NCBI GenBank assembly: GCA_050298055.1
Contig: JBNKTL010000035.1
Coordinates: forward strand, 1 to 50,904
Reading direction: 5' to 3'
DNA length: 50,904 nt
From: Spirochaetota bacterium
GTDB lineage: Bacteria; Spirochaetota; UBA4802; UBA5550
Shown here piece after piece: positions 18,001 to 27,000 of this stretch. The position numbers are program-made. Each line of letters opens with the position of its first letter. The stretch's first letter is position 1.

Positions 18001-21000
18001 AAAGGATTACCTGGACATTATGGGGGAAATTGGAAACATCATTGCGGGAAATGCAGTGAGCATGATCATGGATGAAGAGGTCACCCTTTCACTGCCGGAG
18101 GTTATCAGTAAATCTGATTATGAAAAAGAGAAACCCGGTACAGGGATGATCTATATGATCCCCCTTCTCTGTCCCTTCGGGTATATTACCATATATGTTT
18201 ATTTCAGTCAGTAGTGCTTCGACTGCGTGCAAAATCATGCGGGCTCAGCACGAGGAGAGAATGATATCCGATGCAAGGAGAAAGACGGGACGGGTGATGA
18301 GGCTCTTCCCCGGGCTGCCGCTCTTGATCCTGTAATCTGTTTCAGAAATAAGGCAGAATATCTTCTTGAGAGAACGGGCGGTGAAGATCTCAGTGGACCT
18401 CAGAAATCCCTCTCTTTTGCTCTCAAATACACCGCATGCCTTGATGGCTGAGTTGATATCTGCACCCTCATCAACCAGCGAGTGATACTTTTCGATCATC
18501 TCGGCCTGCCTGGTTATTATTCCGAGAATATTCAGGTCACTGTTTTGTCCTTCTTCAAGGATTTTCTTGAGCATGCCAAGGGACTCATTGTTTTTAAGAA
18601 AGAGGCTTTCAGCAAAATCGAACACGGAGTTCTCCCGGGTGTCGGCGACAATCTGCACCACATCCCCGGGGGATATTTCACCCCGGATACCTGAATTGAT
18701 CAGTAATTCCACCGCGTCATCGACCTTTCTCATGTCCCTGCCGGTAAATTCCAGGATCTGGTGAACGGCATCGGTGCTTACCGTGAGGCCCGCGTTATTT
18801 AATTTGGAAACAGCATACTTTCCCAGGTCATTTTCAAAGTACCGCCAGAACTGGACTATCCGAAAATCTGAAACAAGCTCTTTTTTTAAGACCGACGGGA
18901 GCCTGTTTTTCCCGGTGGTGATTATCAGTGTTGTAGACAGGGGAAGGCCGGTCAGGAGATCATCAAGAAGGGCGGAGGATGATTTGCCCTGCTTCAGCCG
19001 GTCAATGTTCTTTATTATGCAGAGGAGTTTCCGGGAAAACATGGATGTTGAAAGTGCAAAATCCGCTGCCGGGAGCAGTTCATCGTTTTCCGCGTGAAAT
19101 ATCCCCGTGGAGATCCGTGCTTCTTCGGGATCGGGAAAGAGAGCGGTCCGTATGCTGTTGATTATCTTTTCCTTGTCTCCCTCTTCCTCACCGGTGAAGA
19201 TATACCTGGCGAAGATCTTACCGCTCTTTATTTCTGATCTCAGCTGTTTCGGTTTAAGAGGGCTTCCCGGTGACATTATCTTTTTCCTTTTTCAATATTT
19301 GTCATTTTGTCCGTATACCATCCGGTAAGTGTCTGGGAAACAATCCTTTCTGCCAGTTCATCAATGACTCTATTTAATACCTGGAATTCATTCTCTACCG
19401 GAGGGAGGATGTCCGAATAGGTCCTGAATGACTGCACGTCAGAATCTCTGAATACCGTTCTCATGTTAATTCTGTCAAGAAGTTTTACCGAGGCTGTTAT
19501 TCTCATTCTTTTTTTTACCGGCTGGCCGATTTCGTTGTATTCCAGGTTCTGTAAGGTAAAAGAGAGAACTTTCCCGGAGAGGACCAGGTCGGTTTCCAAA
19601 GGTGAAGATACAACAGCAAGCCTGCCGTCCATGCTTATGAGTTTTTCAATCCTGAACAGAAGCCTGTTTTCAATCTGCTCCCTGCCGCTTGAATTTATAA
19701 AATTCCTGATGAATATCCGGTTAGCTCCCCGGGGAATGACCGGTTCACCGGTTGCACTTTTGAGAAATTTTTTTACTCCGGACCCTTTTTTTTTGGGGGA
19801 GTTGTTACAAAAGGTGCCCAGGGACAGGGAGATGAGTATGACCAGTGCCGCTGTTTTTCTCATAACTTGTTTCTCTTTTGCAATATATAACAATATTTAA
19901 CAATAAATAAAACTGATATGTCCCCGCTGCGGTCGGCGGCGGGGATATATAGTTGATATTTCTGTAAATAGGTTTATTTTGGCCTTATAGCAGTAGTTAC
20001 CATAATTTTTATTGCTGAAGAATTCTTATCTTCTCTGCCAGTTTGTATATCTCGTTTATATATTTTTTTGCCGGGGTGTCCCAGAAATATATTGAATGTT
20101 CCGCGTTTATTCTCGCGCTGTATATGACCTCTTCACTGGAGCCAGTGAAAAACTGGTGGGCCCTTTCCATGGCATCGTAAAATGCCCAGGGCGTAAAATC
20201 TGAGAAGAGGAACCCGTTCCCGGTCACACTCTCGTCACCGGCCTGGACAGGGAAGACGGTATCTCTCAGGCCCCCTGTTGCCCGGGCAACCACCAGGCAT
20301 CCTGCGGCAAATGCTTCAAGCTGTGAGATCCCTCCCGGCTCGTGAAGGGAGGGCATCCCGAAAATGTCGGAACAGAGAAGGGGAACAGCTACATCCTGGA
20401 AACCTATGGATACATTGACATTCTCCCTGTAGAACTGAGAGAGGAGGTAGAGTCCGTGCGCCAGCTCTTCTCCCCTGTTGTCACCGGAAGATATGGCGCC
20501 GCCGATAATTGCCTGAAAACCCAGTTGTTTGAAGATCCCCTCCGAAGCATCAAGGAGCAGCTGGAAGCCCTTCTGTTCGGATATCCTGTGTATCATGGTG
20601 AAGAGGATTTTGTCCGGGTTGACTTCAAGGCCCCTCTCATGCTGAAGCATCAGCTTGTTCATCATTCTCACAACGATGTATCTTCTGGCAGGGTCTTCAA
20701 TGCCGCTGACACTCTTTTTCCCCTTCAGTATTTCCGGGTACCTTTTTTCAACCTTCTCCAGAAGTGTATGGCTTCCTTTGATATATTCAACAAGTTCCGG
20801 GTGCCTGTTGTCAACAAAGCCCGATTTGTGAAACCGCGCGTCAAGTTTTTCCCTGAAGTCATGGCCGATGGCATTACTTATCCCTATGACATTGTAGAGG
20901 ATATGCTCAAGGCCGTCACACGCGAACTCTATCTGCCGGGCGTAAGAGGGGCTTACGGTGATGGTCCTGTTGGCATAGCGGATACCCGTGGCCATACAGT

Positions 21001-24000: not shown

Positions 24001-27000
24001 AATCGTAATCGCCGCTCTTCTTATACCTTCTCGAATAGTTTTCCAGGGTTTTCACGGCTTTGAGAGATTTCTCGTAGTCGATCATCATCTCATTATCCCC
24101 GGGGCGCGCGTTGAGAAGTTTAATGAGCGAGTCCCTGTTTTTGGGTGTAAATTTCTTAACCGGTTTTTCTATCCGCTCTTCACGCTCTTCGGGGACTTCA
24201 ACTTCAAATTGAACGGACCTCCTGATGACTTCGTCAACGAGAAAGATGATCGACCCGGTTATTTCAGGGGGATAAATCGTCGTGTGATTAAAACCGGTCT
24301 CAATCGCCCTCTCTTCAACAATAAGCAGGTTCCTGAAAGCCCGGAAGAGTTCACTTTCACCCCTTTTCTCTTCAAAGGAGAGGGCATCAAATGTCTTTAA
24401 TCCCAGGTAGATAGTGGGTATTTCCGTCCATACAGGGCCCTGTCCCACCCGGGAAATGACAGTTGTTTCACCTGATATATGATAGAGAGTGGGAATGCCG
24501 GGAAGTTCCTTAATGATGATAATTCTCCGGTTTACAATATTTACCAGTTCATCAACTGCTGAAGCTCTGTGGAAAAACTTTATTGCCGATATCAGCCGGG
24601 AGGAGAGGCGCGCGTCGTTCATTAACAGGTTTTTCATGTTCTGGTCGCCCTGTGAATACCTGTTGTAAACATCGTTGAGCAGATCCCCATACATACTGAG
24701 AAGTAATTCTGCCGGTTTGTTATTTTTCAGGATGTCAATGATGTCCCTGTCCGGGTAAAATTCATAGCACCTGTTTTCGCTGAAGGCCCTGGCAATTTCT
24801 GTTTTAATGAGGTCTTCCGTAATCAGGTGTTCGTCGGCAATCCTGAACCTTCTGAGGCTGGAAGTTGTTATCTCCTTTTTTACTCTTTTTTCGTTCAATC
24901 TTCAATACCCTTGTCAAATGATCTCTTTTCATGCCCCGGAAGTTACTGGCTGGTATGGATTTTTCAATTGTGACCGGATAAACGTTTTCTCGTTTATTTT
25001 CGTGAGGTGAAAAACCCACATTCTTTATATTGCAGCATTTAACAGGTTTTGTCAAGGCGATTATTGGAATGAAGATTATTTAATCTTCATTCTTCCACAT
25101 GTTTATGCATCTTTTGTAGTAATCTGCCGGCGGCGGTGCGGGGGCTATTTTTTTCACAAGGATGGTCCGTGCCCACCGCCTCTCGGTGAACTCGCATGTG
25201 TCCTTGATATTTCTGCCGGAAAGGCCTTCACTTCTTTCACCCAGCTGCTTACACTCTTCTTCGGTGAGGTGGCGCGCGTAATTTCCGAAAATAGATGACC
25301 GTTCATTCATGTTGGGGAGCGGGAACCGGATTATCTGGTCAAACCTGCTGATAAGGGCGTGATCCAGGTCATTTTTTCTGTTTGTTGCGCCGATGGTTAT
25401 TGTATTCAGAGCGGCATCTATCCCGTCGAGTTTTCGGAGCAGTACCGAGAGTATTCTCCTGGTTGCTTCGAACATATTCTGGTCCCGTGACCCTGCCAGG
25501 GAATCTATTTCGTCGATAAAGATAATTGACCCTCCCAGTTCTTCGCAGAGGTCGAATATCTGCGAGAGGTTCTGTGATGATTGTCCGAACCACTTGGACA
25601 TAATGGATTCGATGGGAACATAGACAAGGGGGATGTCGGCTTCGCCGGCAATAATTCTTGCCGCGGTGGTTTTCCCCACACCCGGGGCTCCTTCGAAGAG
25701 GATCGCCCGGGGACGGTTTGATTCGAACACACGCCGTGTCATTTTTGCTATTGAATCGTAGAGGTCACTGTTTTTCAGCGGCAGGAGGACCGACTCCCTG
25801 ATGCTCCGTTTGACTTCTTCGTAACCTGCTATATAATCCCAGTTTACGGATGTATTGTCATTGATAAGGGACGCCCCCAGTTTATTAAGCTTTAATACCG
25901 GGTCCTCTCCCGCGGATGAATAAACTGATTTGAAAAGTTCAATGACCGCGTTTATCTCCTCCTGGTTCAGGTTCCCCTTTTTGGAGATTATTGCCCGGGA
26001 GTTTATCAGGCTGAAAAACTCAAATTTTATATTGTCCAGGATGTTGTCCGGCTTGAAGAGGTTTGTGTTCAGTGCCTGGAAAGAATAATGCCCCTCTTCG
26101 AAGGTTGCGATCCTCATATGTTCGATATGCTTTTTAATAACCGAAAGAAAATTGAAAAGCATGCTGTCCGTCAGAGGCGGAGAGGTAAAACTTATCTGTG
26201 TTGCCCCCTGCTCATAGCTTATTTCCGGGAGTGAGATTGTGTCAAAGAGGGTTGAATTTTCAAAGGCGGATGTGAGTTCTTTTGTGATCTGTTCCTTCAT
26301 CCTGTCGTAGGGAATCAGCCTGTCTTTTGCTTCATTCATATTTTATACCGTTTATTCTCTATTATTTTCCGTATCGGTTTTACGGGGAATGTCATCCGTT
26401 TCAATATTCATAAAAGTCAGTTTGATGATTTTCCTGTTTTTTTCTATTTTGCGGCTGAAGTCTTTGTTCCATTCAAGCTTCATGAAAACAAGAAACAACA
26501 CCTCCCCGGTTACATCGGTCAACGGTATCCTGTTTTTTCCTGTTTCTTCGGTTTGAAGAGATGTTATCTTTCTGCTGCAGAGAATAGAGCCATTCTCCTT
26601 TTTGACTTCGTTGAAGCTGTGGTCATTTTCGTTGGAATAGTGCCAGAAGTTCTGGTTTGTATCGGAGAGAGTAAGGATTTCTTCTCTGTTAAAAAGTTCT
26701 TCGGTAATTACCGTCCCGCTGAACCCGGGAATCTCATCCACAGGTCTCATCTTTTTCGCGGATATGAACGAACCGGGATTAAATGAAGCATTTATGAAGA
26801 CACTGTCCTTGCCGCCGAATCTGAATTCAATGGTGAACGGCTTTCTGTATATTGCCGCTTCATTATTGACAATATCCTTCTCAATGCCGTCCTGAACAAC
26901 TCTTATATTCAGCTCTGAAGTTCCCTCCTCCCTGAGGTTATTATCTTTTCCCGAACACCCGGTTATTATACACACAAGGAGGGCCAGTACGGTAATTTTT

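Follow-up and report, generated by a model that had tools for sequence, protein, structure and literature searches.

A spirochaete GH13–GT5 fusion as a predicted catalytic counterpart of the eukaryotic GT5 glycogen and starch synthase

The window examined here, a 50,904-nucleotide contig of a Spirochaetota bacterium, carries a gene in which a GH13 domain and a GT5 glycogen synthase are joined in one chain, and it raises the question of what this enzyme is related to and what its GH13 half does. The survey's finding took the fused domain to be the likely branching enzyme of an order that has no other. Our analysis supports a synthase fused to an active-looking GH13 domain, and its main point is one absent from that account: the fusion is homologous over its full length to the eukaryotic GT5 synthase.

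Architecture and active site of the fusion

The whole gene (20009..24898, on the minus strand, as are all parts of the protein given below) was delimited by ORF call and domain search and encodes a predicted soluble GH13–GT5 glucan synthase of 1629 aa (P0001) as a single ORF with Pfam domains of both halves, in agreement with the survey. Its start codon is TTG, and a public record of the same protein has the identical start. The Pfam matches are Alpha-amylase at residues 483–574 (E 1e-9), GT5 at 1083–1333 and Glycos_transf_1 at 1423–1577, and the motifs along the chain are DIVPH (565), RFDSAH (639), ECYWG (726), GNHDE (787), KSGGL (1096) and EPGG (1520). No membrane span is found in the protein, the top 19-residue hydropathy being 1.29. 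Immediately past the stop, pattern matching finds a 15-pair G+C-rich hairpin (19916..19950, not assigned to a strand) as a possible candidate terminator.

The chain begins with a confidently modelled α/β domain (residues 1–240; 24179..24898), which a profile search of the retrieved proteins and of the bacterium's own genome finds in the spirochaete-type copies and in P0126 only. This domain has no family or fold match, with none in Foldseek at E ≤ 0.001 and Atlas matches below 0.9; the fold matches of the N-terminal model cover residues ~237–329 only. It is followed by a helical hairpin bundle (residues ~241–335; 23894..24178), delimited by profile alignment with the eukaryotic enzyme, where homology to that enzyme begins (LVAASGH versus LLGH) and fold matches are generic HEAT-like ones with Z of at most 9.8. 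A β-sandwich N-domain (residues ~336–440; 23579..23893), recognized from the secondary structure of the model and from GlgE-aligned ranges that start at ~339, sits where the N-domain of GlgE and neopullulanase sits and may possibly bind glucan. Pfam, the model and fold comparison then define the GH13 barrel with domain B and the C-domain (residues ~441–966; 22001..23578). A helical linker (residues ~967–1080; 21659..22000), seen in the model and lying inside the span that profile-aligns with the eukaryotic enzyme, leads to the GT5 synthase (residues ~1081–1629; 20012..21658), which is assigned by Pfam, NCBIfam and motifs and in which motif search places KSGGL at 21599–21613 and EPGG at 20330–20341. 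The model of residues 2–1075, built from an 85-row alignment, reaches a mean pLDDT of 83.8, with low confidence in the active-site loops, and the earlier description of the model as poor no longer applies.

In the alignment, three residues fall in the columns that hold the catalytic residues of GlgB, GlgE and GH13_48-type sequences: D641 as the predicted nucleophile (22976..22978), E726 as the acid/base (22721..22723) and D790 as the transition-state stabilizer (22529..22531), the last being non-Asp in the eukaryotic copies compared. This Asp/Glu/Asp triad is kept in 120/120 fusion homologues versus 0/117 eukaryotic copies, which bears out the earlier statement that the catalytic residues are intact, and it is also present in all 11 distant bacterial rows of the alignment. 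All eight tested active-site positions are invariant in the 120 homologues, whose GH13 regions are 62–100% identical to the query. With a (β/α)8 barrel and this triad, the domain belongs to GH13 of clan H. In the GT5 half, the KxGG lysine is retained in 111/120 homologues.

Relationship to eukaryotic and bacterial enzymes

A query that leaves out the GT5 half (residues 2–1075) recovers the Galdieria starch synthase with E 3e-19, along with other eukaryotic synthases. Profile–profile comparison of the fusion with the eukaryotic enzyme by hhalign gives P 100 and E 2e-98 over 1266 columns, BLAST matches occur in both halves, and the GH13-like, linker and GT5 homology is collinear across most of the chain. 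Helical bundle, β-sandwich, GH13 barrel, helical linker and GT5 follow one another in identical order, each half is 21–29% identical, and the two forms are joined in the trees of both domains. In the GH13 tree, 36 fused-type rows split from 29 others at 100/99. The GT5 trees, which are quick trees with canonical bacterial GlgA as the only outgroup, group the fusion with the eukaryotic enzymes and split stand-alone GlgA from all fused rows at SH-aLRT 100 (63 rows) and 99 (58 rows, mixture model). Both forms also share EPGG, found in 115/120 spirochaete-type and 109/120 eukaryotic proteins; stand-alone GlgA has EPCG in 120/120. Red algae, glaucophytes, alveolates, amoebae and some stramenopiles rely on a GT5 synthase of which the fusion, judged by sequence, motifs and trees, is almost certainly the bacterial form and, by prediction, a fully catalytic one. 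PMC6086201 regards the eukaryotic enzyme, as it occurs in red algae, glaucophytes and many protists, as ancient, "of eukaryotic ancestry" and remote from bacterial GlgA, and calls it a "Swiss knife" enzyme that alone is enough for starch synthesis.

The two forms nonetheless differ. Bacterial copies keep the triad and the region I His, where eukaryotes mostly have Arg; they have the KxGGL Lys, which is Thr in 116/120 eukaryotic proteins; they add the 240-aa N-terminal domain; and they are without the C-terminal AMPK1_CBM that most eukaryotic copies carry. Eukaryotic copies form their own GH13 clade at 100/100; P0175, a fragment placed in the eukaryotic clade, does retain the triad. Rather than a degenerate GH13 site and a C-terminal CBM, the fusion has an intact triad and no CBM match, and it is therefore a bacterial variant outside the eukaryotic clade proper. 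A spirochaete donor, or a nesting of the eukaryotes within the bacteria, is unsupported: a single clade of fused bacterial GH13 domains is not rejected (p-AU 0.447), and the backbone of the GH13 tree is weak (87/41).

With bacterial GlgA and GlgB, the fusion shares the GT5 fold and KxGGL on one side and the GH13 triad on the other, but it falls under every NCBIfam cut-off for either and occupies separate branches in both trees. Against the GlgA model TIGR02095 it scores 201.8 versus a cut-off of 328.45, and it has EPGG instead of EPCG. Membership in the GlgB family is rejected by scores of 26 bits versus a cut-off of 741 and 22 versus 577, and a clade of fused GH13 with GlgB is rejected by the AU test (p-AU 0.006), in a tree that separates the fused clade from two sampled GlgB rows and contains no GH13_8 row. 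In place of the GlgB motifs SWGY, RxDAVxSM, AEES and SHDEV, we observe PSPFSP, RFDSAHAVP, AECYW and NHDER. As the survey had reported, sequence matches in the PDB include an amylase (3DHU, E 4e-8) and, over ~105 aa, branching enzymes of rice, yeast and human (E 5e-8 to 4e-6). By fold, branching enzymes rank 33rd, 45th and 50th, with Z of 15–16 versus 22.7 for the best match, and they are absent among the listed rows of Foldseek and of a second fold search.

The top fold matches are instead maltogenic amylases of GH13_48, namely Lactiplantibacillus plantarum 3DHU and Thermotoga neapolitana AmyB 4GKL (Z 22.6–22.9, rmsd 3.1–3.3, 382–397 residues). Like them, the fusion has NHD in region IV and closes region V with L-N (KLLNY), in keeping with the L-[DN] criterion of PMC11239784. 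The identity is only 17–19%, however, and by the further criteria of that paper, the Cys before the nucleophile and the region VII GQ, the fusion differs in having RFD and YEGS; RCD occurs only in L030 and L039, and NGQ only in P0142. The fused clade also stands apart from, rather than nested among, the GH13_48-type rows, a label assigned here by motif, and GH13_48 enzymes are stand-alone; those characterized so far are exo-type hydrolases (PMC11239784). GlgE (GH13_3) supplies nine of the top ten Foldseek rows and the longest structural overlap, ~490–500 residues including the N-domain (Z 20.7). Yet identity is 11–15%, the fusion has NHD rather than NTPD in region IV and neither the RVDNPH motif nor the PF11896 N-domain, GlgE is not sister to the fused clade, and GlgE has no GT5.

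Other fusions of this general kind have been described. In the fungal α-1,3-glucan synthase Ags1/Mok1 (GH13_22 and GT5), GH13 likewise precedes GT5 in a single chain; that enzyme is a membrane protein of ~2400 aa with an external GH13 domain, a general description from which our span-free protein is set apart. The GlgA–GlgB fusion of Waddliaceae carries an inactive true GlgB (PMC11046441), and the dinoflagellate BE2–GT5 fusion, according to bioRxiv 10.64898/2026.09.25.754361, joins GH13_8 to a green-algal SSI/II.

Distribution and glycogen gene content

We find the fusion in 68/71 genomes of the order, where the survey had called it universal; the three genomes without it are 89, 91 and 96% complete, and two of these also have no detected GlgX, GlgA, GlgC or branching enzyme. 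Contrary to the earlier statement, it is not limited to the order and one further family: it is present in Ca. Marispirochaeta associata and in Spirochaetia chromosomes, and the same architecture is that of the standard eukaryotic GT5 synthase. The distant Omnitrophota relatives noted before, P0142 and P0173, do have the same GH13–GT5 order. A viral scan with P0142 as the query gives no match.

The claim that the order lacks a free branching enzyme does not hold, as GlgB is above its cut-off in 3/71 genomes and the GH57 branching C-domain occurs in 28/71. All 31 of these genomes also carry the fusion, so strict complementarity between the two is rejected, and the free enzymes usually accompany a second, stand-alone GlgA. 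Among the 68 fusion genomes, 37 have neither GlgB nor a GH57 branching domain, and GlgX is present in 35 of these 37, including 24/24 at a completeness of at least 90%. The order genomes are related, and such counts reflect a few lineage events rather than 71 trials. Family f1 has the fusion as its sole detected synthase in 13/14 genomes and GlgX in 14/14, while GlgA, GlgC and a branching enzyme were not found. Four large Spirochaetia genomes (G206–G209) likewise have the fusion only. GlgC is undetected in 35/71 order genomes, including all 14 of f1.

At 10 of 29 fusion loci, glgP, glgX or malQ lies within ~6 kb. Genome G115 holds the fusion together with GlgB and GlgE; a GlgE domain was found in 0/17 order genomes. 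G000 has MalQ and two phosphorylases, none of its GH13 hits is TreS-like as judged by motif, and its GH57 match resembles a polysaccharide deacetylase, as judged by eye. GH57 proteins of 701 aa (G049) and 775 aa (G206) give no match to the branching C-domain. For UDP-glucose supply, GalU matches occur in just 2/71 order genomes. A PF01704 protein is present in 68/71 (in G000 at C64:16771–18267), but it is closest to UDP-GlcNAc pyrophosphorylases, and as a UAP-like protein it is unsupported as the UDP-glucose source.

Possible activities of the GH13 half and their meaning

For the activity, we tentatively favor a two-part mechanism, to which we give a little less than an even chance. The GT5 half, from its family and intact motifs, would add glucose onto α-1,4 chains, and its donor in genomes without GlgC would be not ADP-glucose but probably UDP-glucose. 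The GH13 half would form a covalent glucosyl-enzyme at D641 and hand a short chain to another chain rather than to water. As gene content suggests, this transfer would most likely yield α-1,6 links, and thus a branched glucan from one chain, which GlgX, GlgP and MalQ of the same cell could later degrade. The domain would then be a branch-making transglycosylase unrelated to GlgB, its activity having arisen separately, from the GH13_48/GlgE side of GH13; in eukaryotes, where branching falls to a separate enzyme, the domain would have been kept and its catalysis lost. In favor of branching we count GlgX in 35 of the 37 fusion genomes without a known branching enzyme, the fusion-only state of f1 and G206–G209, the nearness of glgP, glgX or malQ at 10 of 29 loci, and the two fusion-less genomes in which GlgX and the other glycogen enzymes are likewise undetected. 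Against it, the closest solved folds (GH13_48, GlgE) act on maltosyl units at chain ends, the fusion persists in every one of the 31 genomes that hold a free branching enzyme and in G115, and imported branched dextrins could be the GlgX substrate. The survey's argument from absence holds in reduced form, for those 37 genomes, but it was overstated because 31/71 hold a free branching enzyme, and the GH13 half is not GlgB.

The same homology could accommodate an α-1,4 transglycosylase, of the maltosyl- or glucanotransferase type, acting on the GT5 chains by priming, disproportionation or trimming, branches being made by an unrecognized enzyme or not at all. PF14701, the glucanotransferase family of debranching enzyme, appears among the Atlas neighbors, a Thermotoga maltosyltransferase is among the sequence matches, and the fusion shares SP[FY] after strand 2 with GH13_48-type enzymes and GlgE (GlgB has SWGY) and D-x-x-H past the nucleophile with GlgE; the persistence of the fusion beside free branching enzymes also fits. 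MalQ already provides this activity in G000, however, and GlgX would be left without a substrate of its own in 35 genomes. Such a transferase is unlikely, if still a serious contender. Slightly less likely again is a switchable build-and-mobilize enzyme whose GH13 half releases maltose (as a GH13_48-like exo-amylase) or maltose-1-phosphate (as a reverse GlgE) from chain ends. GH13_48 and GlgE are the best fold matches, the genome scan gives GH13 genes of RCDVA type as the nearest that stand alone, and the two RCD copies, with the GH13_48 cysteine before the nucleophile, are from Spirochaetia. But a hydrolase coupled to a synthase would risk a futile cycle, TreS-like and GlgE proteins are missing from the G000 hits and the 17 order genomes, respectively, and two phosphorylases already mobilize glucan in G000. 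Our best guess is that the transferase and maltose-releasing readings together are about as likely as branching.

Although the retention of triad-less homologues in eukaryotes indicates a non-catalytic use of the domain, and inactive GlgA–GlgB fusions exist in Waddliaceae and Criblamydiaceae (PMC11046441), the active-site positions invariant in 120/120 homologues and the triad in the 11 distant bacterial rows make a purely glucan-binding or scaffold module very improbable. Least probable of all is a divergent GlgB-family member (GH13_8/9), which the ~105-aa sequence matches would suggest and which the bit scores, tree, p-AU, motifs and fold ranks above contradict.

Returning to branching, a broader scenario is possible, though rather more doubtful than the mechanism itself. 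The fusion may preserve, still functional, the form from which the eukaryotic GT5 synthase descends, its GH13 domain being a third kind of branching enzyme with no relation to GlgB or GH57; eukaryotes would have acquired the gene early from bacteria and silenced its GH13 domain after a separate GH13_8 enzyme took over. PMC5608401 and bioRxiv 10.64898/2026.09.25.754361 describe a separate GH13 branching enzyme in Blastocystis and alveolates. A GH13 domain that proved to branch glucan would count as a branching enzyme of a new kind, and undiscovered prokaryotic branching activities have already been inferred in a review (PMC11046441, section 3.4.2).

The full-length bacterial homologues provide prokaryotic kin for the eukaryotic GT5 synthase, and their retained triad shows that the long amylase-like part of the eukaryotic enzyme derives from an active one. 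The fusion also marks bacteria that apparently make glycogen without GlgC, GlgA or GlgB. In one soluble bacterial protein, both the origin of eukaryotic glycogen synthesis and the former role of its dead domain become testable.

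Architecture and bacterial occurrence of the fusion

The GH13-GT5 glucan synthase is encoded by a single ORF of 1629 codons on the minus strand at 20009..24898, in which Pfam places a GH13 match at residues 483-574 and GT5 at 1083-1577; every NCBIfam GlgA and GlgB model scores under its cut-off. With residues 440-1075 as the query, we recover 261 relatives of 895-2849 aa, and among the best 120 (62-100% identity), nearly all have both domains. In an alignment with known types of GH13, D641, E726, and D790 occupy the catalytic columns, and this triad is conserved in 120 of 120 listed relatives. 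The fusion described in the survey's finding is real. A model of residues 2-1075 obtained with AlphaFold from 85 input sequences (mean pLDDT 83.8) predicts an N-terminal domain, a helical bundle, a beta-sandwich, the barrel with its C-domain, and a helical linker.

The gene has conserved neighbors on both sides: an AAA ATPase upstream (25080-26339; 6 other loci), and a 205-aa gene with holA downstream (18245-19893; 8 other loci). The stretch separating the fusion from the gene that follows contains a 15-pair hairpin (19916-19950). Elsewhere in the window are a type II QueF preQ1 synthase (27072-27473, above cut-off) and a 1504-aa ORF (44339-48853) that has a leader like that of lipoproteins and begins in low-complexity sequence. 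The genes at 27679-41337 we take, from labels assigned by eye, to be a sensor kinase, response regulators, and a chemotaxis cluster (CheW, MCP, CheR, CheY, CheA).

The GH13 part is present in 68 of the 71 genomes of the order, which the survey's finding names UBA4802, and, in a phylum sample of 151, in 17/17 genomes of the order, 9/14 of family f14, and 0/120 others. A scan of the genome collection yields at least 80 loci; the fusion or pieces of it occur in 29 of those listed, including Ca. Marispirochaeta associata, Spirochaetia chromosomes, and one MAG labeled Lentisphaeria. The spirochaete-type fusion in this MAG (L036:5179-10095) reflects either transfer or mis-binning. Three MAG loci (L049, L050, L062) have the fusion broken into pieces over several frames, probably through assembly errors, and one genome (G077) has two copies, on contigs C33 and C10. 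Omnitrophota giants and a Planctomycetota-labeled fragment are among the more distant forms from bacteria. The same GH13 lineage is found within giant multi-enzyme chains (proteins P0171, P0142, P0173, and P0189), in one of them behind a fucose-pyrophosphorylase-like domain.

Relationship to the eukaryotic GT5 synthase

When residues 2-1075, which lie outside GT5, are searched unfiltered, the matches include the starch synthase of Galdieria sulphuraria (E 3e-19) as well as proteins of Acytostelium, Blastocystis, and Cantina. The Galdieria protein itself gives 271 matches, the best 120 of which include Chondrus, Porphyridium, Cyanidiococcus, Blepharisma, Paramecium, Chromera, Physarum, and dictyostelids; Rhodelphis and Cyanophora are also among the eukaryotic relatives. 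Profile-profile alignment of 85 spirochaete-type with 20 eukaryotic sequences (P 100, E 2e-98) spans 1266 columns starting at residue ~247, with a column view that reaches residue ~857, and BLAST matches each half of the fusion to the eukaryotic enzyme on its own.

Our GH13 tree comprises 65 rows and 285 columns, two sucrose-phosphorylase-like rows of the 67 picked having been left out for want of an anchor. With 100/99 support, the 36 fused-type rows split from those of GH13_48 type, GlgE, GlgB, GlgX, and amylases, and the eukaryotic clade is resolved at 100/100. That the bacterial fused GH13 domains form one clade is not rejected (p-AU 0.447). In both GT5 trees, all fused rows split from stand-alone GlgA, with SH-aLRT of 100 when the outgroup is 30 of the 120 listed GlgA and 99 when it is 20 of them together with 11 taken from loci. 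The motif EPGG is found in 115/120 spirochaete-type and 109/120 eukaryotic proteins, and EPCG in 120/120 stand-alone GlgA. The simplest reading is a single origin of the GH13-GT5 fusion; it is limited by the narrowness of the GT5 outgroup, by long branches, and by trees that resolve no sister group.

None of the 117 eukaryotic proteins aligned at all three positions (of 120) has the triad, and Arg replaces the region I His in 107. An independent anchor, usable in 94 of the 120, locates an Asp nearby in 5, where it occupies the position of the His and not the one that follows. D/E/D is retained in P0175, a 713-aa fragment inside the eukaryotic clade, and judging from this triad some eukaryotes may retain GH13 activity. 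The distant bacterial rows have D/E/D in 11 of 11. Since regain of the triad is unlikely, we infer that the active state is ancestral and that the loss of GH13 catalysis occurred among eukaryotes. A bacterial origin is quite probable, as the closest stand-alone GH13s among the matches listed are bacterial.

Possible activity of the GH13 half

By structure, the modeled GH13 half lies nearest to maltosyl-acting families. GlgE fills 9 of the top 10 Foldseek rows for the model. An unfiltered structural search with it ranks 3DHU first (Z 22.7, rmsd 3.1, 382 aligned), followed by 4GKL (Z 22.6, rmsd 3.3, 397 aligned), with GlgE fourth (Z 20.7, rmsd 4.8, 487 aligned) and branching enzymes at ranks 33 (1M7X, Z 16.2), 45, and 50. 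Both 3DHU and 4GKL are filed in GH13_48, the exo-acting maltogenic amylases, in the part of PMC11239784 consulted. The region V ending is common to GH13_48 and the fusion, whereas the cysteine and GQ of GH13_48 are not in the latter. Atlas neighbors are alpha-amylase and PF14701 glucanotransferase clusters. Placement in a clade with GlgB was rejected (p-AU 0.006). We regard the GH13 half as an apparently unassigned lineage of the family, lying close to GH13_48 and GlgE.

The host genome (98.3% complete) has the fusion as its one GT5, together with GlgX, two phosphorylases, and MalQ; GlgB, a GH57 branching enzyme, GlgC, and GalU were looked for there and not found. An alpha-glucosidase-like GH13 gene is divided between two frames at G000:C32:30826-32440. 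Per-genome lists, cross-tabulated by hand entry, give GlgB in 3 of the 71 order genomes, the GH57 branching domain in 28, GlgC in 36, stand-alone GlgA in 47, and GlgX in 65. GalU is matched in 2 of the 71. A UAP-like PF01704 pyrophosphorylase (G000:C64:16771-18267, L013) occurs in 68/71 and in 0/14 controls. The 68 fusion genomes include 31 with a free branching enzyme and 37 without, 35 of the latter with GlgX; a branching enzyme accompanies the fusion in 3/21 genomes lacking stand-alone GlgA and 28/47 having it. Family f1 has GlgX in 14/14, with GlgA, GlgC, and branching enzyme all absent; family f7 has GlgA in 11/11 and GlgC and GlgX in 10/11 each, and no GlgB or GH57 branching domain was recognized in these 11. 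Of five genomes reached via loci, four show the fusion only; in the fifth it is accompanied by GlgA, GlgC, and a GH57 branching enzyme on a single contig. Across the phylum sample, 33/151 genomes have GlgB above cut-off, but only 1/26 of those with the fusion do. Fusion, GlgB, and GlgE occur together in one genome, G115. Of the 29 loci, several of which are short, 10 have glgP, glgX, or malQ close to the fusion. The surveyed genomes are related and mostly drafts, so this pattern represents a few lineages and does not amount to a statistical test.

In the mechanism we propose, the GT5 half would elongate the glucan, using a donor other than ADP-glucose where GlgC is missing, and the GH13 half would transfer instead of hydrolyzing, its products being alpha-1,6 links. 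We tentatively favor this branching activity, which the survey's finding had considered likely, because GlgX is present without another visible source of branches and because eukaryotes with a separate branching enzyme (bioRxiv 10.64898/2026.09.25.754361 and PMC5608401, as far as consulted) lost GH13 catalysis. Counted against branching are the nearest enzymes, which act on maltosyl units, and the retention of the fusion alongside free branching enzymes. The GH13 half might instead perform alpha-1,4 transfer, which seems less likely, or release maltose or maltose-1-phosphate, which we rate slightly lower still; taken together, these two are about as probable as branching.

In the portions consulted, the eukaryotic GT5 enzyme is called "of eukaryotic ancestry" or "of ancient eukaryotic origin" (PMC6086201; bioRxiv 10.64898/2026.09.25.754361). 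Several of our literature searches found no paper. In the text consulted of that preprint, PMC11046441, and PMC10485787, terms for spirochaetes gave no match, nor did Omnitrophota in the preprint and PMC10485787; bacterial members could still be present in the GT5 tree of the preprint (Fig. S1). Earlier publications, for example reviews by Ball and colleagues or a paper on a Trichomonas glycogen synthase, may already describe the amylase-like domain of the eukaryotic enzyme. The interest of the fusion is that it is a bacterial counterpart, with its catalytic site intact, of an enzyme supposed to be eukaryote-specific, and there is a fair chance that it holds a new branching activity.
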